Shown: positions 1-57,464 of the stretch, piece after piece
Position numbering within the stretch: the first letter of the stretch is position 1
How the letters are laid out: every line of letters starts with the position of its first letter
Virus genome (UHGV): UHGV-1364324
Source of the DNA: a virus
Length of the DNA: 59,639 nt
Strand: one strand, 5' to 3'
Program-made: the position numbers and the translations under genes
Notes under the pieces: model-generated
Databases searched by the model: none
What the model saw: the letters and a program-made list of their open reading frames with translations, nothing else
Told to the model about the DNA's origin: nothing

Positions 1-90
1 CTACAGGCGCAGGTGTCGCAACAGGAGCGGCTACAGGCGCAGGTGTCGCAACAGGAGCGGCTACAGGCGCAGGTGTCGCGCCGATCGCAG
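1..90. repeat. 30-bp tandem repeat (3 copies) continuous in phase with copies at 59571..59639; circular/terminal junction of the record
   Basis: Unit caggagcggctacaggcgcaggtgtcgcaa; about 5.3 copies when the ends are joined; encodes (AAPVATPAPV)n on the minus strand. Confidence 0.9.
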
Positions 91-2778: not shown

Positions 2779-2811
2779 AGTTGGTTCCTTGTGTGGTTGA
2801 TTGGTTGCTAC

Positions 2812-2860
2812 GTGGCTAAGGTTACGAGTCAGGTTGCAATGTGTCAAGAATTATTTTATG
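2812..2860 (-). promoter_or_regulatory. sigma70-type promoter of conserved phage family (UP + TTGACA, 17-bp spacer, TAACCT)
   Basis: rc: AAAATAATTCTTGACA N17 TAACCT; drives 1990..2778. Confidence 0.5.
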
Positions 2861-4702: not shown

Positions 4703-4743
4703 TGGTAATCTGTTTAGAATTATTTTAAATATAAGGTAAACTC

Positions 4744-5250
4744 ATGCGTGATTTGATGATTGATATTGAAACATGTGGCACGAAACCCGGTTGTGCGGTG
4801 CTTTCCATTGGTGCTGTATATTTCGATCGCAAAGGTAATATCGGTGAACAGTTTTACGCATCAATGGGTTTTAGCGCGTTGTCATACGGTAATGCTGATG
4901 TTGATACAATGCGTTGGTGGTCGCAGCAGTCTGAACAGGCGCGTACTGACGCGTTTGGCGGGACTGATGACCCACGTGAAGTAGCACAACGTTTTGCAAA
5001 ATTCATTCGTTCTGATGCGCTCCCCTGGGGTAACGGATCTGTATTTGATATCACCATTTTAGAAGCATGGTTTGATGCGGTAGGTATCCGCTGCCCGTGG
5101 AAATTCTGGAACGTTCGTGATGTTCGCACCGCTGTAGATCTGCTGGGTATCAATACTAAACTGTTTACCCGTGATGGCGTTTTTCATAACGCGCTGGATG
5201 ATTGCCTTCATCAGATCAAATATCTCACCAGCGGGACTAAACACTTATGA
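4744..5250 (+). CDS. DnaQ-like 3'-5' exonuclease (DEDD family)
   Basis: Exo I motif MIDIETCG; 168 aa. Confidence 0.7.
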   Translation: MRDLMIDIETCGTKPGCAVLSIGAVYFDRKGNIGEQFYASMGFSALSYGNADVDTMRWWSQQSEQARTDAFGGTDDPREVAQRFAKFIRSDALPWGNGSVFDITILEAWFDAVGIRCPWKFWNVRDVRTAVDLLGINTKLFTRDGVFHNALDDCLHQIKYLTSGTKHL

Positions 5251-5911: not shown

Positions 5912-8266
5912 ATGAAGGGATTACTGAACCGTAAACAATGGGTTTGCTGGAGGCTGGAGCATATTGAAGGTCGCCCAAAACCCACGAAAGTACCTTACAG
6001 CCCAGTCCACGGGTACAAGGCCAGTACAACAAATCCTGCTGACTGGTCTGACTATCATACTGCGCTGGGTATGGCGCAAATACATGGTATGTCTGGTGTC
6101 GGTTTCGTGTTCACTGAAAACGATCCCTATTTTTTCATTGACGTCGATAACTGTCTGGTAGATCAGGCTACAGCCACGTGGTCACCACTGGCACACGAAT
6201 TTGTAAACCGTTTCCCCGGCGCTTATACCGAAGTAAGCCAGTCAGGAACAGGTTTACATATCATCTGTGCGTATAGCAGTTTACCGGAAGGGTTCAACAG
6301 CCTTAACGATCAGAAAACCGGGCTTGAAATGTACTGGCGCGATCGCTTTGTTGCCATGACATTAACCGGGAATGGTGAAGTTGACGTTGATTATACACAG
6401 GGTGTTCATGACTCGATCGCCCGGTATGGTCGAATTCGTTCTGATCGTTCCGCACACTGGACCAGCGCACCCTGTGATGAATGGTCAGGACCAGAAGATG
6501 ACGAAGAACTGATCGCAATGGCGTTGAAGTCATCCAGTGCGGCTTCAGTTTTTGGTAATAAGGCATCGTTTGCGGATCTGTGGACGGCAAATGTTGAAAA
6601 ATTGTCTGTCAGTTATGCGAGCGATCAGGGGAAAGATTATAACGGAAACGCAGCTGATGCGGCTCTGTGTTCACATCTTGCTTTCTGGACAGGTAAAAAC
6701 TGTGAACGAATGGAGCGGTTATTTAATAAATCAGCGCTTGTTCGTGGTAAATGGACAGATCGAAAAGATTACCGTGAGAGAACAATATTAGGTGCAGTTG
6801 AACGTTGTGATACCGTTTATCGTGCACAACCCGCGCTGACCCCAGAACTGATTAACGCTGTTACGCCAGCGCCTACAGTTGCGGTAACGGGTAGTGTTCC
6901 GGCGTATATGTCAATCAGACCCGGTGAAGGTGCTTATGGGGCTAACCATACGGTTAACGCATCCACTTTCGTTAATAACTATTATCCAAATAACACACTG
7001 GTTTTTGTACAGCAGCAACCGTACCGCTTTAACGGTCGCGTCTGGGAACGTGTGACAGAAGATGAATTAAAACATCAGTTATCTATGGCAATGCTGGCAA
7101 GCGAACCAAAAGCTGATGTGATTAATGGTACATATAAAGTTTTAAGCTATCTATTTACCCGTGCCGATCGTGAGTTAGGCACCTGGCCGGGCGTTGATGT
7201 TTCACACTATATCGTGTGTCAAAACGGGATCCTTGATGTTCACACCAGAAAATGTGAACCGCACAATCCCGATTTCTTCACCACCAGTATTTTACCATAC
7301 AGTTACGATCCGTTTGCACAGGCACCCGTTTTTCAGGATTTTCTGAATACGACGCTGGAAGGCGATCAGGAACGTATTGCACTGCTGCAGGAATGGCTGG
7401 GGTATATGCTGGTTAACTCCTATGACTATCAGAAAGCGATGTTACTGATCGGTGCGCCTCGTTCCGGTAAGGGTACTATCGGCCAGATTATTCAGGCGCT
7501 GGTAGGTGATGAAGCCTATGCCGGGATTACGCTTGAAGGGCTGGCAAGTGATGCTGTTCTGGAAACTGTGCTTGATAAATCGGTGTTATTTATTGGTGAT
7601 GCTCACAGTGTTTCCGGGCCTGACCGTAACAGGATCCTCGACCGTTTTAAATCGATAACCGGTGCTGATGCGATACCTGTTAACCGTAAATATAAAGGAG
7701 CCTGGAACGGTCGTTTACCGGGTCGTATGACACTTGCCGCGAACAATATTCCGGCCTTTGCTGATGATTCTGGTGCAATGGCAAACCGCTTGCTGATCCT
7801 GCCGTTTAATATCTCGTTTTTGGGTCGTGAAGATATCACGCTGAAATCACGGTTAATGAAAGAATTACCGGGGATCTGTAACTGGGCTATCGAAGGTCTT
7901 GAACGGTTGCGTAAAAATAACCGCTTCACTGAACCAACAGCAAGCATTGTTGAGCGTCAGGAAATCATAGATCAGCAGGCACCGCTGATGGCTTTCGTTC
8001 GCGACTGCTGCGAGCTGTTACCTGATAGCGTAACCCACACTGAAGAACTTTTCTGTAGATATAAGATGTGGAAGATGCAGGAAGGTGGTGCGACGATGAC
8101 TAAAACCGCTTTCAGCCGGGCGTTTAAAAGTATGTTGCGTGGCCGCGTGGTTAAAGATGTGGTGTCTGTTAACGGTCAGCGGGCGAACGGTTTCCGGGGA
8201 GTGCGTTTACTCCCTTTCCAGCCAGCGGGTAACGTTGTTCCTTTCGCGCCCGCCAGTAATAGTTAA
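5912..8266 (+). CDS. bifunctional primase-polymerase (AEP/PrimPol N-term) + SF3/D5-like helicase
   Basis: FFIDVDNC primase-pol motif; Walker A GAPRSGKGT in C-terminal half; 784 aa. Confidence 0.8.
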   Translation: MKGLLNRKQWVCWRLEHIEGRPKPTKVPYSPVHGYKASTTNPADWSDYHTALGMAQIHGMSGVGFVFTENDPYFFIDVDNCLVDQATATWSPLAHEFVNRFPGAYTEVSQSGTGLHIICAYSSLPEGFNSLNDQKTGLEMYWRDRFVAMTLTGNGEVDVDYTQGVHDSIARYGRIRSDRSAHWTSAPCDEWSGPEDDEELIAMALKSSSAASVFGNKASFADLWTANVEKLSVSYASDQGKDYNGNAADAALCSHLAFWTGKNCERMERLFNKSALVRGKWTDRKDYRERTILGAVERCDTVYRAQPALTPELINAVTPAPTVAVTGSVPAYMSIRPGEGAYGANHTVNASTFVNNYYPNNTLVFVQQQPYRFNGRVWERVTEDELKHQLSMAMLASEPKADVINGTYKVLSYLFTRADRELGTWPGVDVSHYIVCQNGILDVHTRKCEPHNPDFFTTSILPYSYDPFAQAPVFQDFLNTTLEGDQERIALLQEWLGYMLVNSYDYQKAMLLIGAPRSGKGTIGQIIQALVGDEAYAGITLEGLASDAVLETVLDKSVLFIGDAHSVSGPDRNRILDRFKSITGADAIPVNRKYKGAWNGRLPGRMTLAANNIPAFADDSGAMANRLLILPFNISFLGREDITLKSRLMKELPGICNWAIEGLERLRKNNRFTEPTASIVERQEIIDQQAPLMAFVRDCCELLPDSVTHTEELFCRYKMWKMQEGGATMTKTAFSRAFKSMLRGRVVKDVVSVNGQRANGFRGVRLLPFQPAGNVVPFAPASNS

Positions 8267-8304
8267 AATAATTCTTGACGGATTACAAGGAAGTGATCCA
8301 TACT
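8263..8304 (+). promoter_or_regulatory. conserved-family promoter (UP + TTGACG, 18-bp spacer, CATACT)
   Basis: TTAAAATAATTCTTGACG at 8263..8280 overlapping primase 3' end; AT-rich region follows. Confidence 0.45.
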
Positions 8305-8472
8305 CTGTACATCAACTGAACAGGGGTTAAGACGATGTGTTGGCTAATCGCTGAGATACTAAATCGTAAAGATATAATTAAATATTATAATATATGCATA
8401 ACCTTAGCCTATATTGGTAGTTTAGAAATAACTGTATATGGTTTTTTTATAGGTAATTATTTCGGATAACCT

Positions 8473-11153: not shown

Positions 11154-11568
11154 AAAACAGCGTCAGGAACTACGCATGAAGTTTGGCGGGTATTGTGCTT
11201 ATTGTGGTCAGTTGTTGCCGGAAAAAGGCTGGCACGCTGACCATGTTGAGGCTGTTTACCGTGTTCTTAAACAGGATATGAAAGCCGCTAAAAAAGGTTT
11301 ATGGAAACTTAAAGCAACCGGAAAACACTACCGGGAACAAAATGATACGCTTGAAAACTTATTCCCAGCTTGTGCACCTTGTAACCTGTTCAAAACGACG
11401 TTCACCCTTGAACAATTCCGTAAACAGATCGGTGAGCAAATTAGCCGCGCCAGGTCGTACAGCGTCAATTTCCGCACTGCTGAACGCTTCGGACTGGTTC
11501 AGGTAGTTGAACGCCCCGTGGTATTCTGGTTCGAGATCTACCCTTTCATAGTTCAAAATAATTCTTGA
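11140..11568 (+). CDS. HNH endonuclease
   Basis: CAYCG ... HADH ... N ... CAPCN. Confidence 0.75.
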   Translation: MKLSKKQRQELRMKFGGYCAYCGQLLPEKGWHADHVEAVYRVLKQDMKAAKKGLWKLKATGKHYREQNDTLENLFPACAPCNLFKTTFTLEQFRKQIGEQISRARSYSVNFRTAERFGLVQVVERPVVFWFEIYPFIVQNNS

Positions 11569-11593
11569 CACATTGCAAACCCTCCACCATAAT
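11554..11593 (+). promoter_or_regulatory. conserved-family promoter (UP + TTGACA, 17-bp spacer, CATAAT)
   Basis: CAAAATAATTCTTGACA at 11554..11570; -10 CATAAT at 11588..11593; drives 11628 gene. Confidence 0.55.
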
Positions 11594-11620
11594 CAGCCTC
11601 AGTTACTACACATGAGGCTG
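11593..11620 (+). promoter_or_regulatory. hairpin sequestering SD of ParB-like gene
   Basis: CAGCCTCA N10 TGAGGCTG; GAGG SD lies in the 3' arm; paralogous hairpin at 31851..31873. Confidence 0.4.
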
Positions 11621-11627
11621 AAAACCA

Positions 11628-12386
11628 ATGACCAACATCCATTCACTGCGCAAGCTGTCAGAAGCAGACAAAGAAAACGTAAAACGCGCTAACTCCTTCA
11701 TGATCGACCCGCGCATTATCCAGATCGAGCCGGGCTTTAACCCGCGTGGTATGTTCACGGAAAACTACTGGGAACAGCCTGATACTCTGGCGCATATCGA
11801 ACAGTTCGTTAAAGCATACCGCAACGGTGATTTCGTCCCGCCGATTGCCGTTAAAGTTATCAATGGTGTGCCGTATGTGCGTGACGGTGAGCACCGCTTA
11901 CGGGCGCTGCGTAAACTGATCGCTGAAGGCGTACCGTTCCAGCGTGTTGAAGTCGTTGAAGCGTCTGGTGATGAACTGGCGCAGGCTAAAACCAACTTTA
12001 ACGCTAACAATGGTCGCCAGTGGTCAGCCGTCGAACGTGCGGTTCATTACGGTCGCTTTAAATCCTACGGTATGACCGTTGAAGAAATCGCCCAAGAAGT
12101 CGGTAAAACTGTACAGCACGTTTACCAGTTGCTGACTATCCTTGAAATGCCGCTGGAACTCAAACGCCGGATCCAGGAAGGGTCGATCAGCGCATCAGCC
12201 GCTATCAACCTGTTTAAAAACCCGGACGTTGCTACAGTAAAACGTCCCCCGGCTAAACTGATTCGTTCGGCTGTTGAAGCCATCCGTGGTGAATGGTCGG
12301 TCACGCGGCAGGAAGGCGGTAAAGTCCTGGTTGAATTGACCGCTGAACAGTATGAAGCACTGAAGGCGCTGAAAGATCATGAATAA
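11628..12386 (+). CDS. ParB N-terminal domain (ParB/Srx-like) protein
   Basis: VRDGEHRLRALRKL ParB-box-like motif. Confidence 0.6.
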   Translation: MTNIHSLRKLSEADKENVKRANSFMIDPRIIQIEPGFNPRGMFTENYWEQPDTLAHIEQFVKAYRNGDFVPPIAVKVINGVPYVRDGEHRLRALRKLIAEGVPFQRVEVVEASGDELAQAKTNFNANNGRQWSAVERAVHYGRFKSYGMTVEEIAQEVGKTVQHVYQLLTILEMPLELKRRIQEGSISASAAINLFKNPDVATVKRPPAKLIRSAVEAIRGEWSVTRQEGGKVLVELTAEQYEALKALKDHE

Positions 12387-16938: not shown

Positions 16939-17027
16939 TGTTGTTACACCTTACCAGATGTGATTAGGTCAAGTTTACGCCTTATATGAAACAAGTACAA
17001 CTCTTATATGCAACAGGATCAAAGTTG

Positions 17028-17260
17028 GCCTTGTTACAACTGGTAGGATGAAAGAGAAACCTTGTTACATCTGGTAAGCTGAAACATAGATTGCTAAAGT
17101 TCTATGTAAACCATCCAAGCACATCTGGTAAGCTGAAACTAAAAATCCTTATATATTAGTTATTTATCTTTTTATAGTATAGATAGTATAGATAGTATAG
17201 ATATATAAGAAATTATAAAGTAGGTATAGTTAGGCTAGTTAAACTGGTAAGCTGAAACAA
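17028..17260. repeat. iteron array: 4-5 copies of CTGGTA(A/G)G(C/A)TGAAA(C/G), plus CCTTGTTACA repeat
   Basis: Copies at 17040, 17071, 17125, 17244 and degenerate 17383; paralogous region at 34330..34560. Confidence 0.7.
17170..17225. repeat. AT-rich tract with (TAGTATAGA)x3 tandem repeat and ATATAAGAAATTATAAAGTAGGTA box
   Basis: Near-identical about 45-bp box at 34493..34535. Confidence 0.7.
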
Positions 17261-17403
17261 GGTAAACTAGGAGGGATTAAAAAGTTATAGGAAAATACCA
17301 TACTATCTATGATTTTCAATGTTATCAACGACTTAAAGTATGTTGTAGACAATCCGTGATAAATTGTGCAAAATTAACCAAAATGGTAAGAGGAAACTAG
17401 CTT

Positions 17404-18111: not shown

Positions 18112-18160
18112 TTTAAAAAAGAAGCCCGGACGTTACCGGGCAACCTTTATTAATTTTTCA
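18112..18160. terminator. bidirectional intrinsic terminator
   Basis: GCCCGG acgtta CCGGGC flanked by A-run upstream and T-rich downstream. Confidence 0.55.
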
Positions 18161-20392: not shown

Positions 20393-20613
20393 TTCCGGTT
20401 CCTTCTTTTCCGTGCATCGCGCCGGGACTGTGCAACACCAGTTTTACGGCGCGGCTGTCTGGTCGGTAACTGTTGGGTAACCTGTGGTGGTTTCAATCCA
20501 GTGGTAAATATTTCGAAATCACCGATCGTGAGTTTGCCCAGACTGCTCGCCTGTTCGCGGAACTGTTTCAACGTTTCGGAAAAAGGATAAAAACCTACAA
20601 TAATGTTGTTCAT
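20389..20613 (-). CDS. hypothetical basic-tailed protein
   Basis: 74 aa; Arg/Lys-rich C-terminus. Confidence 0.4.
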   Translation of the reverse strand: MNNIIVGFYPFSETLKQFREQASSLGKLTIGDFEIFTTGLKPPQVTQQLPTRQPRRKTGVAQSRRDARKRRNRK

Positions 20614-20882
20614 ACGTTCAGTACCGCGAAATCAGGCGACAGGCTGCGGTGATCGTGCTGCCCGGACCAGGTAAACGAAAAGGTGTAATCGCAGCGTTCA
20701 CCGTCGAATAAGAAGGGAATTTGAAACCCCGTATCGTCGGTGATGCGAACTTTTACGGGGTATTCAGCTTGTGGGTCGATAGCGATAATCTGACCGAAAG
20801 GTTTTGTTTTGCGCCGTGCGAGGACGTCGATTAGTTGTGGGTTGGTGATTTCCACATGTTGACCAACATGATAGATGGACAT
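20610..20882 (-). CDS. hypothetical protein
   Basis: Start MSIYHVGQ at 20882 with GGAG RBS just downstream of promoter. Confidence 0.5.
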   Translation of the reverse strand: MSIYHVGQHVEITNPQLIDVLARRKTKPFGQIIAIDPQAEYPVKVRITDDTGFQIPFLFDGERCDYTFSFTWSGQHDHRSLSPDFAVLNV

Positions 20883-20914
20883 TTTGTTGACTCCGGGTTG
20901 TGTGTACAACCAGA

Positions 20915-20960
20915 AGTCTATCGGGTAATTCGTAATCCGTCAAGAATTATTTTAAACCGT
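20915..20960 (-). promoter_or_regulatory. conserved-family promoter (UP + TTGACG, 17-bp spacer, TAGACT)
   Basis: rc TTAAAATAATTCTTGACG; overlaps 3' end of 20918..21124. Confidence 0.55.
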
Positions 20961-21124
20961 CCTGTACTGTCTATCGCGTAACAGATACCGTTGCTGTAAA
21001 CGGTAGTAGTCTGAGTAATTCTTTGATAATCGGTGCATTGGCTGCGAATACGTAAGTCATACGCAGACTGTACGACGAACCATGCAACCATTATTGCTAA
21101 CAATTTCAAAACAAATCTAAGCAT
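20918..21124 (-). CDS. small membrane/secreted protein
   Basis: Hydrophobic N-terminus MLRFVLKLLAIMVAWFVV; GGAGGG RBS. Confidence 0.45.
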   Translation of the reverse strand: MLRFVLKLLAIMVAWFVVQSAYDLRIRSQCTDYQRITQTTTVYSNGICYAIDSTGRFKIILDGLRITR

Positions 21125-22303: not shown

Positions 22304-22561
22304 TTACCCCGCTGTACTTTCAACCTGATTAGGAAATCTTAAAACCTCATCGAATACAGCACCGATACGATCCGCGCTGGGGATGAAATCACAACTCCCA
22401 TTGTCAACGGCTTCACATATTTCGTGGTAGCGCGTTACATCGAATAACGTCACATCACAATCACCAATGGTGGCAAATGCAATACGCTTTGATGGGCATT
22501 GCGCTAATATTTTATTTACTTTTTCAACCCATTTCCTTTCGGCGATTGTTAAAACGGCCAT
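22304..22561 (-). CDS. hypothetical protein
   Basis: 85 aa; GAGGG RBS. Confidence 0.45.
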   Translation of the reverse strand: MAVLTIAERKWVEKVNKILAQCPSKRIAFATIGDCDVTLFDVTRYHEICEAVDNGSCDFIPSADRIGAVFDEVLRFPNQVESTAG

Positions 22562-22571
22562 AATGAACCCT

Positions 22572-22748
22572 CTATTCGGTTATTTCTTCGTACTCAACAC
22601 CCCAGAAACCTGTAACCCATGATAGTTTTTCATATTTTAGTAGTGAGTTAGACCACATTAACTTATCACCACTGGCACTATCTAAAATTTCTGTGATTTC
22701 ACCAACCGTAACAAAAGTACAGTTTGATTTAGTAATTCTAACGTCCAT
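22572..22748 (-). CDS. small hypothetical protein (58 aa), first gene of leftward operon
   Basis: MDVRITKSNCTF...; GAGGG RBS in the leader duplicated at 26655..26675. Confidence 0.4.
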   Translation of the reverse strand: MDVRITKSNCTFVTVGEITEILDSASGDKLMWSNSLLKYEKLSWVTGFWGVEYEEITE

Positions 22749-22781
22749 CTTTTCTAAACCCTCTGTTCAGTTCATGTTCAA

Positions 22782-22830
22782 AGCATAACCGTGCATCTGC
22801 AATTCGTCAAGAATTATTTTAACCAATACC
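22782..22830 (-). promoter_or_regulatory. conserved-family promoter (UP + TTGACG, 17-bp spacer, TATGCT)
   Basis: 74-bp module 22755..22828 identical to 26655..26728. Confidence 0.6.
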
Positions 22831-22884
22831 AGCTACGATAACCCGTGGTAAACTGTACAGAACTGTTGAAAACGGAACATCACA

Positions 22885-24648
22885 ATGAATAAATTCGCTG
22901 GCAACATTCACAAGTACCCGCGCTGGCGGGACGCTTACGCAGAAGATGAACGGATCTGGCGCAAAGGTGAACCACGGCCTGATTACCGTCAGTGTTACAT
23001 CGACCGTATCAACCTGATAAACCGTATGCGCACCGATCGGGCGATCATTCCGGTACTGAAAAAGTATTATGAAACTAACCCGGTGGCGTTCATCCTCGAC
23101 TGGGCGTTTACCTACGATCCGCGTAACGTTGGTACGGAATTTCCGCCGAACATGCCGTTCTGTCTGTTTGAGCGTCAGATCGATATGATTCAGTTCGTTT
23201 ATGAAGCGCTCGAAGATAAAGAAAAAGGATTATGGGAAAAATCCCGCGACTATGGCGCAACGTGGGTAGCCTGCGGATTATCCGTGTGGGCCTGGCTCTA
23301 TCGTCCCGGTTCGTCAGTTGGCTGGGGGTCACGTAAAGAAACGCTCGTTGATAAACTGGGGGATCCTGACAGCATATTTGAAAAAATCCGCCAGATTATC
23401 CGCGCTCTGCCTCCTGAATTACGCCCGGTTGGTTACCGTGAAAAAGATCACCTGACGTTCATGAAATGTATCAACCCGGAAAACGGTGCAACAATCACTG
23501 GTGAGGCCGGGGATAACATCGGGCGCGGTGGTCGTAAATCAATTTATTTTCTCGATGAGGCTGCACACGTTGATCGCCCTGAACTGATCGAAGCGTCATT
23601 GTCAGCTAACACCAACGTTCGTATCGATATCAGTTCTGTTAACGGTGTCGGTAACGTTTTTTATCGCAACCGTAAAGCAGGTATTGAATGGGAGCCGGGT
23701 AAGAAAATACCCCGTGGTAAATTGCGCGTCATGGTTCTGGACTGGCGCGATCACCCGGCGAAAGATGATGAATGGTACAAGCGCGAAAAACAGTCATTCG
23801 CTGAAAAAGGTTTACAGCATATTTTCGCACAGGAAGTTGACCGCGATTATGCTGCAGCCGTTCAGGGTGTACTCATCAAAGCTGAATGGGCGCGGGCCGC
23901 ATTCGATGCGTTCAAAGATATCGCGTGGCGTAAAGCAAACGGTCTGCTTGCACCAGCAGGTAAACGCATTGCCGGACAGGATGCCGCAGACGGTGGTGAA
24001 GATGCGAGTGCACTGGTCGTTGCTCATGGTGTATTTATCACGCATCTACAACTTGACCACCGCAGCGCTGAACTGGCCGCACCTGGTATGCTGAATGCTG
24101 CGAACATGATCGGTGTTGATGAATACTGGTATGAAGTTAACGGCGTGGGTGCTGGCGTTAAAGTAGCGGCTAACGATCGTAAGGATACGTTGCGGTTCCG
24201 TGTTCGTCCGTGGTTACCGAACGGAAAAGTTGTCAATCCTGGCGGTGATATTATCGGCGGAACGATACCGGGCGATAAAGACCGTAAAACGAACAAAGAT
24301 TATTTCAGCAACTATAAAGCACAGGCATCATGGGCGCTGCGTATGCGTTGCCAGAGAATTTATAAATGGTACGTTGAAGGTCAACCACAGGATCCTGATG
24401 AGATTATTCTGATTGATCCGACAATGGAAAACGCGCAGCGTCTTGAGGCAGAACTATGCCAACCAACGTATAGCACTAATGGTGCGGGGAAAATAGTTAT
24501 TGATAAAAAACCAAACGGCTCTAAATCACCTAACTTTTTCGACGCAACCGTTATTGCTACTTCACCGAAGCGCGTAGAATTCGAGGAAGAAACGTTTACA
24601 GGTACAGTAAACGCTGTCGGAACACCAGATTACGGGAGTATATTCTAA
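22885..24648 (+). CDS. terminase large subunit
   Basis: 587 aa; deviant Walker A KSRDYGATW typical of TerL ATPase; nuclease-like C-terminal half. Confidence 0.8.
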   Translation: MNKFAGNIHKYPRWRDAYAEDERIWRKGEPRPDYRQCYIDRINLINRMRTDRAIIPVLKKYYETNPVAFILDWAFTYDPRNVGTEFPPNMPFCLFERQIDMIQFVYEALEDKEKGLWEKSRDYGATWVACGLSVWAWLYRPGSSVGWGSRKETLVDKLGDPDSIFEKIRQIIRALPPELRPVGYREKDHLTFMKCINPENGATITGEAGDNIGRGGRKSIYFLDEAAHVDRPELIEASLSANTNVRIDISSVNGVGNVFYRNRKAGIEWEPGKKIPRGKLRVMVLDWRDHPAKDDEWYKREKQSFAEKGLQHIFAQEVDRDYAAAVQGVLIKAEWARAAFDAFKDIAWRKANGLLAPAGKRIAGQDAADGGEDASALVVAHGVFITHLQLDHRSAELAAPGMLNAANMIGVDEYWYEVNGVGAGVKVAANDRKDTLRFRVRPWLPNGKVVNPGGDIIGGTIPGDKDRKTNKDYFSNYKAQASWALRMRCQRIYKWYVEGQPQDPDEIILIDPTMENAQRLEAELCQPTYSTNGAGKIVIDKKPNGSKSPNFFDATVIATSPKRVEFEEETFTGTVNAVGTPDYGSIF

Positions 24649-25352
24649 TGACCACGCTAACACTCTTGAGTAGTGAAACCAGTGACGATTTATTGACCAA
24701 AATCAATGATGCATTGAGTGATGGTAAATTTCTTTACGGTACAACAACAGTTTTACCGGGTGAGAGTCATAATCCGGTGCGTTTTTTCCAGTATGTCAGC
24801 GATATTGATATTACCAGCGGGGCAAGCGCTTATGACATCTGGCTACAGCAGGGTAACACAGGAAGTGAACAGGATTTTCTGGATAGTCTACAGGGTGCAT
24901 CCTACGTGCGCCAGAAATCAGAGGTAACCTGGTCTGGTATCTCACTGGTTATTCCAACCGAATCGCCGATCAACCTGATTAACGCACTGAAAGCACTCAC
25001 CCCCAGCGGTGGTACGTTAGCGCCATTCTTCAACACCACTGACAACAAACTGCACGTATTCAACCAGAACATGACGGTTAATTTTAAACTTAACCTGATT
25101 GGTTCATGGGCAGGATCAACCGAAAACCGCAGCATGACCCTAAATTTTGTCGGTACAACAGGTAACACACTGACTTATTCACGAGATAGTAGCGTGACCA
25201 GTGATAATGTATCGTTCAGAACGTTCCTGAGTATCGACCAGGATGGGAATATTGCAACGAACGGTACAGAGTTGACGATCGTCAGTAACGGTGCAGCGTT
25301 TACTGCTACACAGGTGCTATTGATTGCCGAACAGCTTGTTCCGACTCCTTAA
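24648..25352 (+). CDS. tail-fibre-like / virion fibre protein
   Basis: SAYDIWLQQGNTGSEQDFLDSLQG motif common in phage fibre proteins; TAATG coupling to TerL. Confidence 0.4.
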   Translation: MTTLTLLSSETSDDLLTKINDALSDGKFLYGTTTVLPGESHNPVRFFQYVSDIDITSGASAYDIWLQQGNTGSEQDFLDSLQGASYVRQKSEVTWSGISLVIPTESPINLINALKALTPSGGTLAPFFNTTDNKLHVFNQNMTVNFKLNLIGSWAGSTENRSMTLNFVGTTGNTLTYSRDSSVTSDNVSFRTFLSIDQDGNIATNGTELTIVSNGAAFTATQVLLIAEQLVPTP

Positions 25353-25359
25353 ATTGAAT

Positions 25360-25388
25360 AGCCCCGTTACTCCGGGGCGTTTTCATCG
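25360..25388 (+). terminator. intrinsic terminator
   Basis: GCCCCG ttactc CGGGGC GTTTTCAT. Confidence 0.6.
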
Positions 25389-26544: not shown

Positions 26545-26680
26545 TGTGTTTTCTCCATTCTAACCACTGGTCGCGTAAATCCTTAATGAAATAATAAGCG
26601 GCTACAAAACCCAACTGTGCTCGCCATTAAGTAAAAGTATCCCAGTTATTCTTGTACATCATCTCACCCTCTGTTCAGTT

Positions 26681-26729
26681 CATGTTCAAAGCATAACCGT
26701 GCATCTGCAATTCGTCAAGAATTATTTTA
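26681..26729 (-). promoter_or_regulatory. conserved-family promoter (duplicate of 22782..22830 module)
   Basis: Identical 74 bp including RBS region. Confidence 0.6.
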
Positions 26730-26795
26730 ACCCCGTGCAAAACTAACCCGCCTGATATAACATATGTTAAGAATAAACCCGTGGAGCCTGTGAAG

Positions 26796-28148
26796 ATGGC
26801 AGATGACCAATTTGAACAACTAGCCGTTGCCGGATACAGTCGCACAGGCAACCAGGTTAACGATGATTTTTTACCTAAACTCAACGGTAAACAGGGTCGT
26901 CGTATCCTTCGCCAGATGGCAGAGAACGACGAAACGATCGGTGGTGTACTGTTTGCCATGAACAGCGTTTATCGTTCCGTACAGTGGATTTTTGACCCGT
27001 CTGATAAAGAAGACCCGCAAGCTGTTAAATACGCTCAATGGCTGCAGAATGCTATTGAAAACCAGATGGGTGATCCACAGGGTGCGTTACCTGATGACAC
27101 CTGGTCAGCATTCGTTCAGACCTGGACCGACACCGATGTTTTCGGCTGGGGATGGTATGACGTCTGGGTTAAAGATTTACCCGATGGTTCCGTGGGTATC
27201 GCCCGTCTCGTTCCGGTTGCGGCTGAAACGCTCGACGGCTGGGAGATTGAAGAACCGACAGGTTATGTCACGGGTATTCATCAGCGTCAGCCATCAACCA
27301 ATATCAGCAAACTGATCCCCCGGTCACGATCGCTGCATCTGATTTCATCACCGAACAAAGGTAACCCGGAAGGTTTATCACTGCTGCGCACAGCATATCG
27401 CCCGTGGTATTACAAAAAAGTTCATCTGGAAATCGAAGCAATTCTGGCAGAACGTGGAACAGGTTTCCCGGTCATTACCGTTAACCCTGACATTAAAAAA
27501 GCGGCTAACGATCCGACGCTGTCTGAACAGCAACGTCAGTTAGCACAGGCAATGATAGATGAATTTGAAAACATCGCGGCTAATATTAAGCGCAATGAAC
27601 AGTCTGGTCTGGTGATTTACTCAAAACCGTATATTACCGGGTTTGATAACGAAACAGGGGTGACGACATACGGCGGTGAACAACAGGTTAAACTGGAATT
27701 CCTGACGCCTGAACAGTCTAACGCCGTGGATATCGACCGCACGATTAAGCGTCTCGATACCAGTATTGCCCGTGCGCTACTGGCCGACTTCATGTTTTTT
27801 GGTACAGGTGGGAATACAGGCAACCAGGCGAATCTGGGTAGCCGTACAGAACTGTGGATCCGTGCGATGCAGTCGCGTATCGATAGCAACGTTGAATGTA
27901 TTAACCGTCAGCTAATCCCGCAGTTATGGAAACTGAATGCGTTCCCGGATGAATATAAACCAACGTTACGCGCTGGCTCAATAAGTAAAGACAGTATTGA
28001 AACACTGACCACTGCGCTTACACGTCTGGCACAGGCTGGCGCGCCAGTATTCCCGGATCCTGTACTTCAGGAATTCGTGTATAAAGAGGCGGGATTACCA
28101 ACAGCGGGAATTGATAAAACTGGTGAAGGTTTACCGTCTATTGATTAA
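26796..28148 (+). CDS. portal protein
   Basis: About 450 aa; position and size; GGAG RBS before ATG 26796 (track start GTG 26781). Confidence 0.7.
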   Translation: MADDQFEQLAVAGYSRTGNQVNDDFLPKLNGKQGRRILRQMAENDETIGGVLFAMNSVYRSVQWIFDPSDKEDPQAVKYAQWLQNAIENQMGDPQGALPDDTWSAFVQTWTDTDVFGWGWYDVWVKDLPDGSVGIARLVPVAAETLDGWEIEEPTGYVTGIHQRQPSTNISKLIPRSRSLHLISSPNKGNPEGLSLLRTAYRPWYYKKVHLEIEAILAERGTGFPVITVNPDIKKAANDPTLSEQQRQLAQAMIDEFENIAANIKRNEQSGLVIYSKPYITGFDNETGVTTYGGEQQVKLEFLTPEQSNAVDIDRTIKRLDTSIARALLADFMFFGTGGNTGNQANLGSRTELWIRAMQSRIDSNVECINRQLIPQLWKLNAFPDEYKPTLRAGSISKDSIETLTTALTRLAQAGAPVFPDPVLQEFVYKEAGLPTAGIDKTGEGLPSID

Positions 28149-28180
28149 ATAAAAAAAGGGGTCTATAACAGACCCCAAAA
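28148..28180 (-). terminator. intrinsic terminator (mainly minus strand; bidirectional hairpin)
   Basis: GGGGTCT ataac AGACCCC with A7 run upstream (T-run on minus strand). Confidence 0.65.
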
Positions 28181-28248: not shown

Positions 28249-28590
28249 TTACCCCACATAATTTGCAACGATTTGATCGCAGTCGTCCGTGTTGCGGGCC
28301 AGTCGATAAATTTCAGAAGCAACCTGTGACCGATAATACATATCGACGTTGTAATTATTAGTCACGTAGTTATAAGCCGCTTCGTAACTGCCGAACATTT
28401 TGTGATTGCTCACAACTTCTTTTTTCACTGAACCATTCAGCAACCAGCCGATCAACAGCAGTATTGCACCGATACCAGGACTGGTTAAAACCGCAATAAA
28501 GAACCAGGTTCCGGGGTTGCGCCCGGTATGTTTGGCAAAGGCACCAACCAGAGCGCTAAAGAGGATCCACAGGATTACGAACATTTTCAA
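28249..28590 (-). CDS. two-TM membrane protein
   Basis: Hydrophobic helices; AAGGAG RBS. Confidence 0.5.
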   Translation of the reverse strand: MKMFVILWILFSALVGAFAKHTGRNPGTWFFIAVLTSPGIGAILLLIGWLLNGSVKKEVVSNHKMFGSYEAAYNYVTNNYNVDMYYRSQVASEIYRLARNTDDCDQIVANYVG

Positions 28591-28615
28591 ATCTCCTTAA
28601 CCAGTTGTTGAGTTA

Positions 28616-28664
28616 ACAGTACACGTCCATGTGTAATCCGTCAAGAATTATTTTGAAACGTCGA
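28616..28664 (-). promoter_or_regulatory. conserved-family promoter (UP + TTGACG, 17-bp spacer, TACTGT)
   Basis: rc CAAAATAATTCTTGACG. Confidence 0.5.
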
Positions 28665-29483: not shown

Positions 29484-29809
29484 AAGTTTTCCCCAATAAT
29501 TGCAGCACAGTTAACGATCGCTAAACGGGTTGCTTTTTCACGGTCTTCCCCGTGTGGAGTAAGTTGTTTATAGCGAACACCAGTATCTGGATTGTTCACT
29601 AAAACTGCATAATCTCTAACATCCAGATCTAAATACAGGTGTACCATCAAACTGAAAGCATCACCGTTATCAATAAGCGGGTTCCACAAGCGACCACCGC
29701 CGATATCGATCCCTTCGTTTACGTCGCGCTCGCCATACGCGATATAGTATTTACCCTCAATTTCACCAGCGCGGGCCGCATTGATCAGCAATTCACGATT
29801 AGTCATCAT
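29480..29809 (-). CDS. hypothetical protein
   Basis: 109 aa. Confidence 0.45.
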   Translation of the reverse strand: MMTNRELLINAARAGEIEGKYYIAYGERDVNEGIDIGGGRLWNPLIDNGDAFSLMVHLYLDLDVRDYAVLVNNPDTGVRYKQLTPHGEDREKATRLAIVNCAAIIGENL

Positions 29810-30309
29810 TTACGCCCCGTTGATCCGAAACCGCCTTTACGCTGACTTTCCACGCCGGGCAACTGCTCCACTTCAACCACGGCTACCGGTTCAACGCGTT
29901 CTACCATCAGTTGACAGCAACGTTCACCGTGTTCCAGCATGAACACTTTGTGGGAATGGTTAACCAGGGTGATAAAATATTCGCCGGGATAATCGCGGTC
30001 ACCAACACCCACGCAGTTGATCAGTGTCATACCATTTTTCAGGCTGAGGCCGGAACGAGGGTAGAATTTGATGCAATGATCAGCATCGACAGACATTTTC
30101 AGACCAGTGGGAATCAGTGCGCGTTCGCCTGGGTAAATACCAATAATACCCTCAATGGGTTTTCGTTCCAGTTTAGCGCCTGCAGGCGGGAAGATTGTCA
30201 CAGTTTCAGACCACAGACATGCGCGAACATCCATCCCGGCGCTATCAGCCGTTTCACGCGTTGGGATCACAGCCAGGTTAGTGAGTCGTTGAATGTAAAG
30301 GTTAGACAT
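29806..30309 (-). CDS. dut: dUTP diphosphatase (dUTPase)
   Basis: AGMDVRA, PRSGL, GVGDRDYPGE and C-terminal RKGGFGSTG motifs. Confidence 0.8.
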   Translation of the reverse strand: MSNLYIQRLTNLAVIPTRETADSAGMDVRACLWSETVTIFPPAGAKLERKPIEGIIGIYPGERALIPTGLKMSVDADHCIKFYPRSGLSLKNGMTLINCVGVGDRDYPGEYFITLVNHSHKVFMLEHGERCCQLMVERVEPVAVVEVEQLPGVESQRKGGFGSTGRK

Positions 30310-30337
30310 TGTTTAGTTCCTCATTGTGTTTCGACAC

Positions 30338-30390
30338 TTGCAATACTGCGTCCTGTAGTGTAATCTGTCAAGAATTATTTATAACCAACG
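30338..30390. promoter_or_regulatory. overlapping divergent promoters: minus-strand conserved-family promoter (TTGACA at rc 30371..30366) and putative plus-strand TTGCAA-N17-TAATCT
   Basis: Minus promoter drives dut; plus candidate would drive the 30402 gene; hexamers interleave on opposite strands. Confidence 0.4.
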
Positions 30391-33843: not shown

Positions 33844-34242
33844 TTATGCCAGTGATGCGGCAATTTCTTCAAACTTATCTGCCAGCACATTGCGGCGCGT
33901 GAACGTGCCATTTATGGCCAGATCATCACGCCCTAATTTGTGGGCGCACTCGTTGAACTCGCGCTGCACTGCATCCATCGGGCGCTGTGAAAAATCACCG
34001 TTCGGGTTACGCAGACCAGACGCGTAATGCAGGGCGCTATTAGCAAGCAGGGTTTCAGCGGAATGTTGTGATTCAACTTCATACGCCAGTGCTTCACGCA
34101 GACTATTGGTACGAAGAACGGTTTCACCTTTTACGGTATCAACGACAATGTATTTACACGCGGTTGATGCATCAGTACCAACGATAAACATATTTTCTGC
34201 TTTCCAGACTTTACGGTTTTGAGTTTCGCTAATCAGTTTCAT
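33844..34242 (-). CDS. hypothetical protein
   Basis: True start MKLISETQ at 34242 with GAGGGTAAGA leader shared with 42282 gene. Confidence 0.5.
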   Translation of the reverse strand: MKLISETQNRKVWKAENMFIVGTDASTACKYIVVDTVKGETVLRTNSLREALAYEVESQHSAETLLANSALHYASGLRNPNGDFSQRPMDAVQREFNECAHKLGRDDLAINGTFTRRNVLADKFEEIAASLA

Positions 34243-34273
34243 CGTCTTACCCTCAGTTCGTTTCGTTGTGATA

Positions 34274-34322
34274 ACTATACCTCCATACCTGCAATTCGTC
34301 AAGAATTATTTTAAATCTTCTT
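34274..34322 (-). promoter_or_regulatory. conserved-family promoter (UP + TTGACG, 17-bp spacer, TATAGT)
   Basis: Promoter + leader (34245..34310) duplicated at 42290..42355. Confidence 0.6.
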
Positions 34323-34329
34323 TCATCTT

Positions 34330-34560
34330 ACCAAACTGGTAAGCCGTAACTCAGCGTCATAGATGACATAGATAGTATGAAAGAGTTATACAGATCTGGT
34401 AAGCGGTAACATAGATTGCATAGTTTGCGTATACTTATTTTTAACAAATTTATCTTCTAACTTACTGTTTTTATTATCTTTTACATACTTATCATAGATA
34501 GTATAGATTTATATAAGAATTATAAAAGTAAGGTAAGTAAGGGTTAGTAGGGTAAGATCT
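34330..34560. repeat. second iteron/AT-rich region paralogous to 17028..17260
   Basis: CTGGTAAGCCGTAAC (34336), CTGGTAAGCGGTAAC (34396), ATAGATTGC box, ATAGATAGTATAGATTTATATAAGAATTATAAAAGTAAGGTA, GGTAAG repeats. Confidence 0.65.
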
Positions 34561-34630
34561 AAAAGATAAGGAAAACAGCATGAAATGTATGATACTATGC
34601 ACCCGTGGTTAACTCGCGAGGAAACACCCA

Positions 34631-37801: not shown

Positions 37802-38185
37802 ATGAAAAAAAATGAATTTGATCCGTCAGCTAAATATCGTTTCACCCGTCCTATGCTCTGGCACGGTAAGTACGTTGCCACGGGTGATGCTGTTCCCGAC
37901 GATGGTACACCTGTTGGCATTTTGCGGGCATTGTTCAAACAGCGGCAGATTGAAGCCGTTGTACCCGTTACCATCCAAAACAAAAGCAACGAACCGGTAA
38001 CTGTTAGTCAGAAAGATGACAAAATAACTATCAGTGCTGGCCCGGTAGCTGAGATCCGCAGTGAAGGCGATGGCTTCTATAACGTTTATATGTCCGGTAT
38101 GCCATTAACCCCGGCTAAAATTCGCGGTAAGAAAGCCGTTGAAAAATGGTGTGAAGAACAAAAGTTGACTTACAAGTATTCTTGA
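37802..38185 (+). CDS. hypothetical protein
   Basis: Start MKKNEFD with GAGG RBS; 127 aa. Confidence 0.45.
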   Translation: MKKNEFDPSAKYRFTRPMLWHGKYVATGDAVPDDGTPVGILRALFKQRQIEAVVPVTIQNKSNEPVTVSQKDDKITISAGPVAEIRSEGDGFYNVYMSGMPLTPAKIRGKKAVEKWCEEQKLTYKYS

Positions 38186-38945
38186 CGTATTGTTAGTTCA
38201 AGGCGACGCTGATTAGATAGAACTGCATAGCAGACGCTGTTGAAAACCTTAGCCTTTAATCGGTCACCATGTGTGACGCTGGATAAACGTAACCAGCAAC
38301 TATCAGGTAAGGGTATTGACAGGTGGATGTTCGTAGCGCTGCGTAACTTTTGATGGGTTCGAGTCCCATACAATGCTCTTTCCGATAGTTTTCGTGGCGA
38401 CTTTGCGGGTTTTTAGAAACTGACCACAAAGATAAATGCAAACGAAGAAATGTATCTGGCAGTAGCCTAACGGCTAAACACCAGTGAGGTATTCCAGCTC
38501 CTCATCAACGAATCTGGCGCACTGGCCCGGTGTGATTAATAATGGGCACACAACAGGTAAGGTAATTTCAAGCAGTCTCAAGGGGTGCGCCCGCACTGAT
38601 GACGATCGGTGCGCAAAAGTACGCACAGAAGAACTTGGAGTTATCTTTCCGTTGTGGTGAAGTACAAGATGACAGTGCTGATGAATCGGGGACATCAAAA
38701 CCCTTGAGCCGGGTCATATGGGGACGGCAAGAACGCGACTTCAGCCACCACACGTGCGAATCACACCAATAGGAGGTGATCGCTATCTTGCTGGCGGGCA
38801 AGCCGCAAAGCGTGGGTAAAGCACGTTGTGAAACGTTCTGAACTGCGTAAAGAATTAACCCAGAGCCATGCAATTATTCGCCGTCTGTTTAAGACGGCTT
38901 TTTTTCGTGCTAAAATAATGAAAACTATTCTGTACAGGTGACCAC
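38186..38945 (+). other. about 750-bp non-coding island with tRNA-like T-arm/acceptor element and terminal intrinsic terminator
   Basis: No ORF >=60 aa; ATGGG TTCGAGT CCCAT T-arm at 38353..38369; 7-nt 38187..38193 complementary to 38370..38376; no canonical D/anticodon arms. Confidence 0.3.
38880..38905 (+). terminator. intrinsic terminator
   Basis: GCCGTCT gttta AGACGGC TTTTTTT. Confidence 0.7.
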
Positions 38946-39356
38946 ATGGCAATCACAGTTGAAGGTATCCGCAATTTAATTAACGTTCCTGATATCAGTG
39001 ATGACACAATTCAGTGGTACATCGATAACGGGTACACCAATCCGTTAAGTATCTGTATCGCGCTTTGTGATTACATGGCTTCACTGGTCAGTAACGATAC
39101 TGATATTAAAGTTGGCCCCATCTCACTTTCTGGTAGTGACGCCGCTAAAGCCTGGAACTTGCTTAAAAAAGATTTTATTTTGCGTTTGAATACCGGGACG
39201 GATCCGGGTGGTTCAGGATTTGGCTTAGGGTTTGGTGTCGGCGGTATTACATTAACTGGTCAGGGTATGCCCCCTGCTATTCAGCGTGGGCAGTTTGATA
39301 ACCCACCTATCACGCTTGAGAACAACACTACACGCATTAATGAAGGTGAGCAGTAA
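38946..39356 (+). CDS. head-tail connector/adaptor (gp6-like)
   Basis: 136 aa; first gene after head module. Confidence 0.4.
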   Translation: MAITVEGIRNLINVPDISDDTIQWYIDNGYTNPLSICIALCDYMASLVSNDTDIKVGPISLSGSDAAKAWNLLKKDFILRLNTGTDPGGSGFGLGFGVGGITLTGQGMPPAIQRGQFDNPPITLENNTTRINEGEQ

Positions 39357-42058: not shown

Positions 42059-42084
42059 GCCCCGGACTAACCGGGGCTTTTTAT
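42059..42084. terminator. strong intrinsic terminator (bidirectional)
   Basis: GCCCCGG actaa CCGGGGC TTTTTAT; U-rich on rc as well. Confidence 0.7.
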
Positions 42085-42087
42085 GTG

Positions 42088-42282
42088 TTAGTTAAGATAT
42101 GCCGCACGACCAGCCATATAACCAGCGAGAAACATTTTAAACCACTCGTTGCACTCTCCTTGCTGATAATATGCACCAATTTTCCACATTTCTTTTTCTT
42201 CGCGGTCGAAACGAAAACGCCCTTTGCAGTTCTTTTCAAAAGACTCCATAATTTCGTACCATTCTTTTGTGAACAACATCAC
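42088..42282 (-). CDS. moron: small hypothetical protein (64 aa) with own promoter and terminator inside tail operon
   Basis: MMLFTKEWYEIMESFEKNCKG...; opposite strand to flanking tail genes. Confidence 0.5.
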   Translation of the reverse strand: MMLFTKEWYEIMESFEKNCKGRFRFDREEKEMWKIGAYYQQGECNEWFKMFLAGYMAGRAAYLN

Positions 42283-42311
42283 TCTTACCCTCAGTTCGTT
42301 TCGTTGTGATA

Positions 42312-42360
42312 ACTATACCGCCCTGTCTGCAATCCGTCAAGAATTATTTTAAATACCTTG
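42312..42360 (-). promoter_or_regulatory. conserved-family promoter (UP + TTGACG, 17-bp spacer, TATAGT)
   Basis: Promoter + leader nearly identical to 34245..34310. Confidence 0.6.
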
Positions 42361-42418
42361 CGCAATTCGTACAGAACTATTACTATCAACGTGTCATCTA
42401 ACATAACAGGTAAACATC

Positions 42419-57424: not shown

Positions 57425-57464
57425 TGTTTATCGCCTCAGTAAGTTTTAAATAATTCTATACGGT

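Follow-up and report, generated by a model that had tools for sequence, protein, structure and literature searches.

A family of sigma-70-type promoter-leader cassettes, probably early promoters of variable gene blocks, in a 9NA-like siphovirus

Virus genome UHGV-1364324, analysed here as one stretch of 59,639 nucleotides (the window), contains a family of near-identical elements dispersed among its genes. The ten strong copies are probably promoter-leader cassettes that the sigma-70 RNA polymerase of the host uses early in infection to drive variable blocks of genes. The feature is genuine, statistically solid and conserved, and the reading proposed in an earlier note on this DNA is right for the most part. 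The feature falls into an established category, the families of repeated early promoters of virulent phages, and as such is a modest surprise.

The motif family and its architecture

The 18-mer TTAAAATAATTCTTGACR has 13 matches in the window at up to three mismatches, against 0.19 expected, and none of 100 shuffled sequences reaches this number. The matches comprise ten strong and three degenerate copies, designated below by first position and strand, and include every site listed in the earlier note, whose family of at least ten copies is real. On the minus strand, the strong 18-mers occupy 2842-2859, 20938-20955, 22805-22822, 26713-26730, 28639-28656, 30366-30383, 34297-34314 and 42335-42352; on the plus strand, they occupy 8263-8280 and 11553-11570. 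All ten are co-oriented with the next gene. Six lie wholly between genes, three reach into no more than the final codons of the gene upstream and the remaining one lies inside the 3′ end of open reading frame (ORF) 20918-21124. The motif is thus not spread evenly over coding DNA without orientation bias, nine of the ten strong copies being intergenic or confined to terminal codons.

The layout is that of a sigma-70 promoter, as had been claimed, with an A/T-rich block, TTGACR, a spacer of 17-18 bp and TAnnnT. The -35 hexamer is TTGACR in all ten strong copies, the spacer measures 17 bp in nine of them and 18 bp in one (8263+), and every -10 hexamer has A at position 2 and T at position 6. A logo was built from 46 sites of the window phage and the related phages KP13-27, 9NA and AVIO78A. 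The search pattern that collected these sites contained TTGAC, which is (nearly) invariant among them, and excluded the -10 element, a T/A block (-48 to -43) and an ATTRCA box (-28 to -23), so that conservation of the latter three constitutes independent evidence. The conserved block spans 26 bp from -48 to -23 (TTTAAAATAATTCTTGACRGATTRCA), and conservation falls abruptly to background at -22. Further downstream, a -10 signal appears at the right distance, with information contents of 0.6, 1.1 and 0.95 for T-12, A-11 and T-7. The ATTRCA box, at 1.25-1.85, extends conservation into the spacer beyond what the earlier note described.

The UP element, as Estrem et al. reportedly defined it in 1999, is A/T-rich, extends from -59 to -38 and contains a proximal subsite AAAAAARNR and/or a distal subsite. 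Positions -46 to -38 of the family (TAAAATAAT) give about six of nine matches to the proximal consensus, while the information content from -59 to -49 does not exceed 0.25. The A/T block (-48 to -38) thus appears to resemble a proximal UP-element subsite. A generic sigma-70 scan of the whole genome yields no excess of promoter-like sites (18-28 found versus 24-33 in shuffles), and the family members are among its best scorers.

The distance to the downstream gene is also constrained. Measured from the motif centre, the start codon is 63-66 nt away in eight of ten copies, 73 nt away in 2842- and ∼60-65 nt away in 26713-, when the truncated first ORF of this last copy is counted; on the same count, it lies 27-34 nt past the -10 element in nine of ten. 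The unit is therefore a cassette of ∼75 bp comprising promoter, leader of fixed length and ribosome-binding site (RBS). Leaders fall into subtypes, for example TATGCTTTGAACATGAACTGAACAGAGGGT (22805- and 26713-) and TATAGTTATCACAACGAAACGAACTGAGGGTAAGA (34297- and 42335-), and the stretches 34245-34316 and 42283-42354 are 93% identical over 72 nt. No stem-loop is common to the family: when 84-nt cassettes were folded and compared with shuffles, z fell below -2 in three of ten, and the other seven folded no better than shuffles. The hairpins occupy differing places, namely the spacer in 8263+ (z = -2.4) and the leader in 11553+ (z = -3.7) and 20938-. At 11593-11620, a stable hairpin (CAGCCUCAG...CAUGAGGCUG) just precedes the Shine-Dalgarno sequence of a gene encoding a ParB-like helix-turn-helix (HTH) protein; it is conserved in 9NA and AVIO78A and may be a translational or stability element.

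Conservation in related phages and prophages

The window is a complete, circularly closed 9NA-like siphovirus genome of ∼59.6 kb, because its first and last 60 bases are identical and it is collinear with the whole genomes of its relatives. The closest of these are the Klebsiella phages KP13-27, BU9, Carvaje and VLCpiS10a. Over the 10-kb stretch compared, identity is ∼93% to KP13-27, Kpn BU9 and Carvaje and ∼82-85% to Salmonella and E. coli phages of the 9NA/Sasha group. KP13-27, 9NA and AVIO78A each carry 10-13 copies of the family, mostly in syntenic positions. In AVIO78A, four copies bear an independent annotation by its authors as generic sigma-70 promoters (method: PMC10612097), and in the first 16 kb of the Sergei record RBSs and terminators are annotated and promoters are not.

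More distant phages retain parts of the element. Proteus phage PM-CJR, with 60% identity in the major capsid protein and the same interleaved architecture, has seven copies of TTTAAAATATGGCTTGACRnATTACA with TAnnnT at 17 bp; the A/T block, the -35 element and the ATTACA box are kept, and the four bases before the -35 element are changed from ATTC to TGGC. The ATTRCA box is thus conserved from the phages of Klebsiella, Salmonella and E. coli to that of Proteus. In Vibrio relatives (48% capsid identity), four promoters have the form TTGACA-NN-YGTAAC-N-TAnnnT, in which the YGTAAC box differs in sequence from ATTRCA and lies at nearly the same place.

Outside this group, the exact 22-base pattern AAATAATTCTTGACRNATTRCA is found in ∼25 IMG/VR contigs, in multiple copies in those that are 9NA-like and as a single copy in about ten that resemble Klebsiella prophages. 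Copies of the prophage type lie at 4741-4762 of locus L012 and in loci L009, L010, L031, L033, L035, L036, L038, L039 and L059. There, the element precedes a DUF1902 (HicB-like)/HicA toxin-antitoxin pair, beside genes for a tail spike and a Bro-N antirepressor-like protein, and two kinds of upstream flank are combined with three kinds of downstream sequence. Since the same 26-mer heads the DUF1902/HicA pair in unrelated Klebsiella prophages, this arrangement suggests that the element needs no 9NA-specific factor and can work with host proteins alone. The copy in locus L055, beside a tRNA, is on a phage contig and is uninformative for the distribution. A host motif was considered and rejected: among 185,579 bacterial genomes (one per species) there are eight exact matches, almost all in unrelated taxa, a number estimated to be near chance level.

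In KP13-27 (∼22430-22687) and 9NA (3737-4003), a conserved untranslated stretch of ∼230 nt on the minus strand, CATAGACAAGATACCTGACCAAGTATGTAGTAACCCGG..., separates the terminase-adjacent promoter from the first gene. It is replaced in the window and may be a leader RNA element.

Probable function and the role of the ATTRCA box

According to the favoured reading, the host sigma-70 RNA polymerase would read the ten strong copies through a UP-like A/T block, a near-consensus -35 element, a 17-bp spacer that opens with ATTRCA and a moderate -10 element, and the short leader of fixed length would end in a Shine-Dalgarno sequence and a start codon. The cassettes would drive blocks of DNA-metabolism and small accessory genes, mostly antisense among late structural genes, from which terminators would isolate them where the two converge. 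Early (pre-replicative) use, on entry of the DNA into the cell, is most likely, given the sigma-70 features, the nature of the downstream genes and the fact that no phage RNA polymerase or sigma factor is apparent among the annotated and scanned proteins. The sequence architecture, position, orientation, conservation across genera and one conversion event are shown directly; use by the host polymerase and a role in recombination are inferences, as are the great strength and the early or middle timing that the earlier note ascribed to the promoters.

Several points weigh against this interpretation. The -10 elements match TATAAT at only three to five of six positions. The ATTRCA box is as conserved as the -35 element and yet corresponds to no known sigma-70 contact, so that something beyond plain recognition by polymerase may act there. 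Two TTG-less copies, 4711- and 57445+, are kept at fixed places although they cannot be promoters. The excess of breakpoints at cassettes over other gene junctions, which bears on the proposed role in gene exchange, is not significant (p = 0.10). No transcription data for the 9NA-like group were found in the literature, and a literature search with the motif string gave no match, although an earlier description of the family is possible.

Both TTG-less copies are antisense to their surroundings. The first (4711-4728, minus strand, TTAAAATAATTCTAAACA) carries TAAACA, has no usable -10 element and lies between the helicase and exonuclease genes; it occupies the same place in KP13-27 and 9NA and was not detected in AVIO78A. 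The second (57445-57462, plus strand, TTTAAATAATTCTATACG) carries TATACG, has no -10 element and lies in a 40-bp gap after the DNA polymerase gene; its 23-bp motif is identical in four phages, while the flanks differ.

Such sites raise the question of whether the elements are sigma-70 promoters that serve at the same time as operators, a phage or host protein binding the composite of -35 element and ATTRCA. This is unlikely, but it would explain much of what is particular to the family. The bound protein would shut early transcription off later or load a polymerase-modifying factor, and the TTG-less copies would be pure binding sites. The high information content of a box that was outside the search pattern, with its sharp drop at -22, is in line with this idea, as are the persistence of the box in the Proteus phage despite the change of ATTC to TGGC just upstream, the different box at nearly the same place in four promoters of the Vibrio relatives, the conservation of TTG-less copies at fixed positions and the need of a virulent phage without its own polymerase for an early-to-late switch. 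However, no conserved regulator came to light. A homologue of the ParB-like HTH protein is missing from the Proteus phage, whose own Xre-like HTH protein lacks a counterpart in the window, 9NA, AVIO78A and KP13-27, and Pfam and PHROGs are blank for the small proteins that are conserved. Outside promoters, GATTRCA shows no enrichment (21 occurrences versus 19.7 expected), dyad symmetry around the -35 element is weak, with 5/6 at best and a variable right half, and the same 26-mer presumably works as the sole copy in unrelated prophages. It is doubtful, to the same degree, that a putative phage protein bound at the -35 element and the box silences all of the dozen early units together, or reprogrammes the polymerase, at the time when the antisense late genes start.

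Three more specific explanations of the box were tried and rejected. A dyad operator TAATTC-N5-GRATTA pairs at no more than 5/6, varies in its right half and leaves the conserved CA (-24/-23) out of the symmetry. Read as the -35 or -10 element of a promoter that overlaps or diverges, ATTRCA fits only at 2842 (TTGCAA-17-TATGAT). An association of the G/A variant of the box with divergent versus internal position is inconsistent across relatives.

A second class of motif, TTCTGTACAG..TTACC, lacks TTG and is similar to the promoter core; it occurs at 22848-22867, 38927-38942, 42369-42381 and 27842-27851. Sites of this class precede the large terminase gene and the genes at 38946 and 42419; that of the terminase reads GTTCTGTACAGTTTACCAC and is conserved in four phages, while its surroundings vary. 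If the operator explanation applied, the same putative protein would bind, in the absence of a promoter, at 4711-, at 57445+ and at those TTCTGTACAG sites that precede terminase and tail genes. Another sequence, ACCCGTGG, recurs just upstream of the start codons of the terminase (22840), portal (26776) and head-operon (34600) genes, and both classes may be control signals of late genes.

Genes served by the cassettes

The coding fraction of the genome is 91.4%. Leftward blocks of small genes break up its rightward late genes, which encode the small and large terminase subunits, portal, head proteins, tail tube, tape measure and tail tip, and most of the blocks served by cassettes are accordingly antisense to their late neighbours. 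Among DNA-metabolism genes, the cassettes serve a replication/recombination operon (DUF2800/PD-(D/E)XK nuclease), RdgC and dUTPase. The accessory genes include those of the ParB-like HTH protein, of NADAR and SLOG-family proteins and of many unannotated proteins and ORFans. Neither Pfam nor PHROGs returned a match for the small proteins that are conserved.

The nature of these genes bears on the possibility that the elements are activator-dependent middle or late promoters of the T4 MotA or lambda Q type rather than constitutive early ones, which is quite improbable. The genes served belong to DNA metabolism and accessory functions and none is structural, and the prophage copy presumably works without phage factors. 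The MotA box, of the TGCTT type and centred at -30, replaces the -35 element, so that MotA promoters lack one; every copy here has a consensus TTGAC, and ATTRCA does not resemble the MotA box. A box between the -35 and -10 elements is present, as in the lambda Q type, but the logo contains no -10-like pause element (TAnnnT) at +1 to +15, and no match to a Q-like family was found among the proteins scanned, which cover part of the ORFs. A sigma-54 promoter (TGGCAC-N5-TTGC) was also rejected: TGGC occurs only in the Proteus variant, where its spacing to TTAC/TTGC is one base too long, while the enteric copies have ATTC.

Taking the probable host-polymerase promoters in genome order, cassette 1 (2779..2860, minus strand; -35 TTGACA at 2842-2847, -10 TAACCT at 2819-2824) precedes a gene for 262 residues (1990-2778) of the leftward replication/recombination operon, and it has orthologues in KP13-27, 9NA and AVIO78A. 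Cassette 2 (8262..8334, plus strand; -35 TTGACG at 8275-8280, 18-bp spacer, -10 CATACT at 8299-8304) overlaps the stop codon of the primase gene, and small ORFs begin at 8335. Cassette 3 (11552..11627, plus strand; -35 TTGACA at 11565-11570, -10 CATAAT at 11588-11593) is followed by the ParB-like HTH gene (11628-12386, 252 residues). Cassette 4 (20883..20956, minus strand; -35 at 20938-20943, -10 TAGACT at 20915-20920) is internal to a leftward gene string, the next gene being 20610-20882. Cassette 5 (22749..22823, minus strand; -35 at 22805-22810, -10 TATGCT at 22782-22787) is divergent from the large terminase gene (22885-24648) and precedes a gene for 58 residues (22572-22748). The string that starts at cassettes 5 and 4 is closed by a bidirectional terminator-like hairpin at 18124..18141, which also follows the small terminase gene.

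Cassette 6 (26660..26731, minus strand; -35 at 26713-26718, -10 TATGCT at 26690-26695) is divergent from the portal gene (26796-28148), and its block is closed by a bidirectional terminator-like hairpin at 25361..25378. In the first ORF behind it (26627-26662, minus strand), a TAA at 26627-26629 leaves 11 codons; KP13-27 and VLCpiS10a have TAC instead and encode a protein of 44 residues there, and the TAA has arisen either by a recent nonsense mutation or through an error in sequencing. Cassette 7 (28585..28657, minus strand; -35 at 28639-28644, -10 TACTGT at 28616-28621) is internal to a co-directional gene string. Behind cassette 8 (30310..30384, minus strand; -35 TTGACA at 30366-30371, -10 CAGTAT at 30343-30348) lies the dUTPase gene (29806-30309, 167 residues). 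Cassette 7 is followed by gene 28249-28584, and the block of both cassettes ends at a terminator-like hairpin with a T-run (28158..28176, minus strand) beside the portal stop codon. Behind cassette 9 (34243..34315, minus strand; -35 at 34297-34302, -10 TATAGT at 34274-34279) lies a gene for 132 residues (33844-34242) without homologue in the four relatives compared. Cassette 10 (42280..42353, minus strand; -35 at 42335-42340, -10 TATAGT at 42312-42317) heads a single ORFan of 63 residues (42088-42279) that ends at a bidirectional terminator-like hairpin (42059..42077). The three together form a moron-like unit of a single gene, flanked by the genes for tail tube and tail chaperone.

The four terminator-like hairpins thus mark the points at which leftward blocks meet the ends of late genes. 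The statement in the earlier note that each good copy starts an operon of small genes does not hold, since four copies (8263+, 11553+, 20938- and 28639-) are internal to co-directional gene strings and the genes that follow 2842-, 11553+ and 30366- encode 262, 252 and 167 residues.

Recombination, gene conversion and gene exchange

The promoter-leader sequences of cassettes 5 and 6 are identical over 67 bp (22758-22824 and 26666-26732, offset 3908), with flanks that are ∼25% identical, which is chance level. The pair had been described as 74 bp long, with its second interval misplaced at 26655..26728. In VLCpiS10a, the nearest relative, the orthologous pair differs at 11/67 positions against 0/67 in the window; compared with VLCpiS10a, the 67-bp sequence of the window has three differences from the portal-adjacent copy and nine from the terminase-adjacent copy. 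Because the window pair is identical where that of VLCpiS10a is not, and because it is nearer to the portal-adjacent version, the comparison points to a recent gene conversion with cassette 6, the portal-adjacent copy, as the probable donor and cassette 5, the terminase-adjacent copy, as the recipient. The recent recombination of a promoter-leader cassette that the earlier note proposed is thus borne out.

More generally, the copies would be paralogues kept alike by selection on the 26-bp element and further homogenised by occasional gene conversion, of which the 67-bp pair would be one event. As short islands of identity beside variable genes, they could also act as crossover points at which downstream genes are exchanged. 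For example, homology of the window to VLCpiS10a, KP13-27, AVIO78A and 9NA begins at 22758-22785, so that the gene behind cassette 5 has been replaced. Similarly, the slot at 42088-42279 holds different genes in different phages, and three or four of the ten first genes after cassettes have no homologue in KP13-27, 9NA and AVIO78A. Ends of high-scoring segment pairs fall within 80 bp of motifs in ∼20/176 cases, versus an estimated ∼3% expected at random positions. Breakpoints occur at 15/27 promoter junctions and at 108/288 other gene junctions (odds ratio 2.1, p = 0.10), and mosaicism is pervasive in the 9NA-like group. The proposal that the cassette is a unit of mosaic gene acquisition is therefore clear for the two single swaps (22758-22785 and 42088-42279) and fails to gain significance from the junction counts. 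The cassettes are one class of crossover point and not demonstrably the main one.

Copies that mark gene-swap boundaries in several comparisons, together with a ParB-like HTH gene directly behind one of them, might evoke a site unrelated to transcription, for example one of parS type, bound by the ParB-like protein, or one at which a site-specific recombinase would act to move gene cassettes. Hardly any probability attaches to this explanation. An orientation that follows the downstream gene in ten of ten copies, a fixed distance to the start codon and a -10 signal at 17 bp are not expected of parS or att sites. parS sites are palindromes of 14-16 bp that are independent of orientation and usually cluster near parB, whereas the motif lacks symmetry, is scattered and strictly follows the direction of the genes, and the Proteus phage keeps it although the ParB-like gene has no homologue there. 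Neither an integrase nor a recombinase was detected in the ORFs scanned.

Other features of the genome

The identical ends of the window (1-60 and 59580-59639) each consist of two copies of a 30-nt unit, CTACAGGCGCAGGTGTCGCAACAGGAGCGG, and these terminal repeats sit inside a leftward gene homologous to 9NA gp66. The ends look like an overlap of a circular assembly across a short tandem repeat within a gene; if so, the true genome measures ∼59,579 bp. Directly after the large terminase gene, 24648-25352 encodes a protein of 234 residues with an Sf6-type tail-needle-knob domain (Pfam E = 1.4e-50), which is present in VLCpiS10a and has no homologue in KP13-27, 9NA or AVIO78A.

A stretch of 760 bp without a convincing ORF (38186-38945) ends at a strong terminator (38880-38898). 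The third degenerate member of the family, a weak copy at 38170-38187 (plus strand, three mismatches), keeps TTGACG and has no -10 element at 17 bp. It overlaps a promoter-like TTGACT-17-TATTGT (38165-38193), which precedes the ORF-free stretch and may serve it instead. The stretch holds a sequence like the T-arm of a tRNA, GGGTTCGAGTCCC. In the scan of the window, there are no genes for tRNA or transfer-messenger RNA (tmRNA) and no Rfam match at the gathering score; a permissive rescan of 38100-39000 gave sub-threshold tmRNA and permuted-tmRNA matches (18.8 bits versus a gathering score of 47), and ARAGORN gave none. This region is absent in 9NA, shorter in AVIO78A and partly common to KP13-27, and it may encode a non-coding RNA.

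Two long regions without ORFs, which are related to each other, precede the small terminase gene (16939-17403) and the head-gene operon (34322-34630). They share iteron-like repeats, namely ATCTGGTAAGCTGAAAC (4-5 copies), TTGTTACA, tandem ATAGTATAG 9-mers and TATAAGAAATTATAAAG. Analogous repeat-rich regions exist in the Proteus and Vibrio relatives, with repeat sequences of their own, and the regions are candidates for a late-promoter/activator region, a pac site or an origin.

Significance of the family

The family provides a ready-made transcription map for poorly studied virulent siphoviruses that are isolated for therapy against Klebsiella, Salmonella and E. coli. It marks the genes that are likely to be expressed first, including many ORFans and candidate anti-defence genes (NADAR, SLOG, methylases), and would explain the small antisense blocks among late structural genes, each furnished with a promoter and a terminator. 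With the 26-bp element, it supplies a compact candidate for a strong promoter in enterobacteria, and the ATTRCA spacer box offers a handle on early versus late timing in a phage without its own polymerase. The family also illustrates, beyond T4-type phages, how repeated regulatory sequences may homogenise each other and offer crossover points, with a gene exchange that reaches as far as the toxin-antitoxin morons of prophages.

Comparison with known systems

The early promoters of other virulent phages are the first term of comparison. N25 of T5 and A1-A3 of T7 are early promoters for the host polymerase, and the cassettes share with them strong sigma-70 features, an A/T-rich upstream sequence and presumable use by unmodified host polymerase at the start of infection. 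Unlike the cassettes, the T5 and T7 promoters are clustered in the DNA that enters first and are not known to form a near-identical 26-bp family or to have a conserved spacer box. The designation of the family as T5-type is thus apt as a functional analogy and does not extend to membership.

Morons, which Juhala et al. are said to have described in 2000, are promoter-gene-terminator units between the late genes of lambdoid and other temperate phages. The unit of cassette 10 is likewise a self-contained insert of this kind between two tail genes, and in Klebsiella prophages a genuine moron, DUF1902/HicA, stands behind the same promoter. In contrast to morons, most blocks served here contain several genes, and all share one promoter sequence, which morons are not known to do. 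Lysogeny genes are absent from 9NA (PMC4153490), so that no expression from a prophage is to be expected.

The closest described system is the promoter early stem-loop (PeSL) cassette of T4-type phages, in which repeated strong sigma-70-like early promoters combine an A/T-rich upstream block, a stem-loop and a Shine-Dalgarno sequence with ATG, sit before ORFans and mediate modular shuffling (Arbiol et al. 2010, PMC2839356; Comeau et al. 2014, PMC4122927). Both systems consist of many near-identical promoters of a strong, sigma-70-like early type, with A/T-rich upstream sequences and, at the far end, a Shine-Dalgarno sequence followed by a start codon. In both, most of the genes behind them are small variable ORFans, alongside a few genes of DNA metabolism. 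PeSL copies are points of homologous exchange, a role that the present ones may play as well, and both systems show evidence of recombination between copies. The defining stem-loop is absent here as a family feature, and the host of the cassettes is a 60-kb siphovirus instead of a T4-type myovirus. PeSLs lie in hyperplastic regions, whereas the present blocks are antisense between late structural genes, and the cassettes have in addition a conserved ATTRCA box and a leader of fixed length. The family works like the PeSL without being one.

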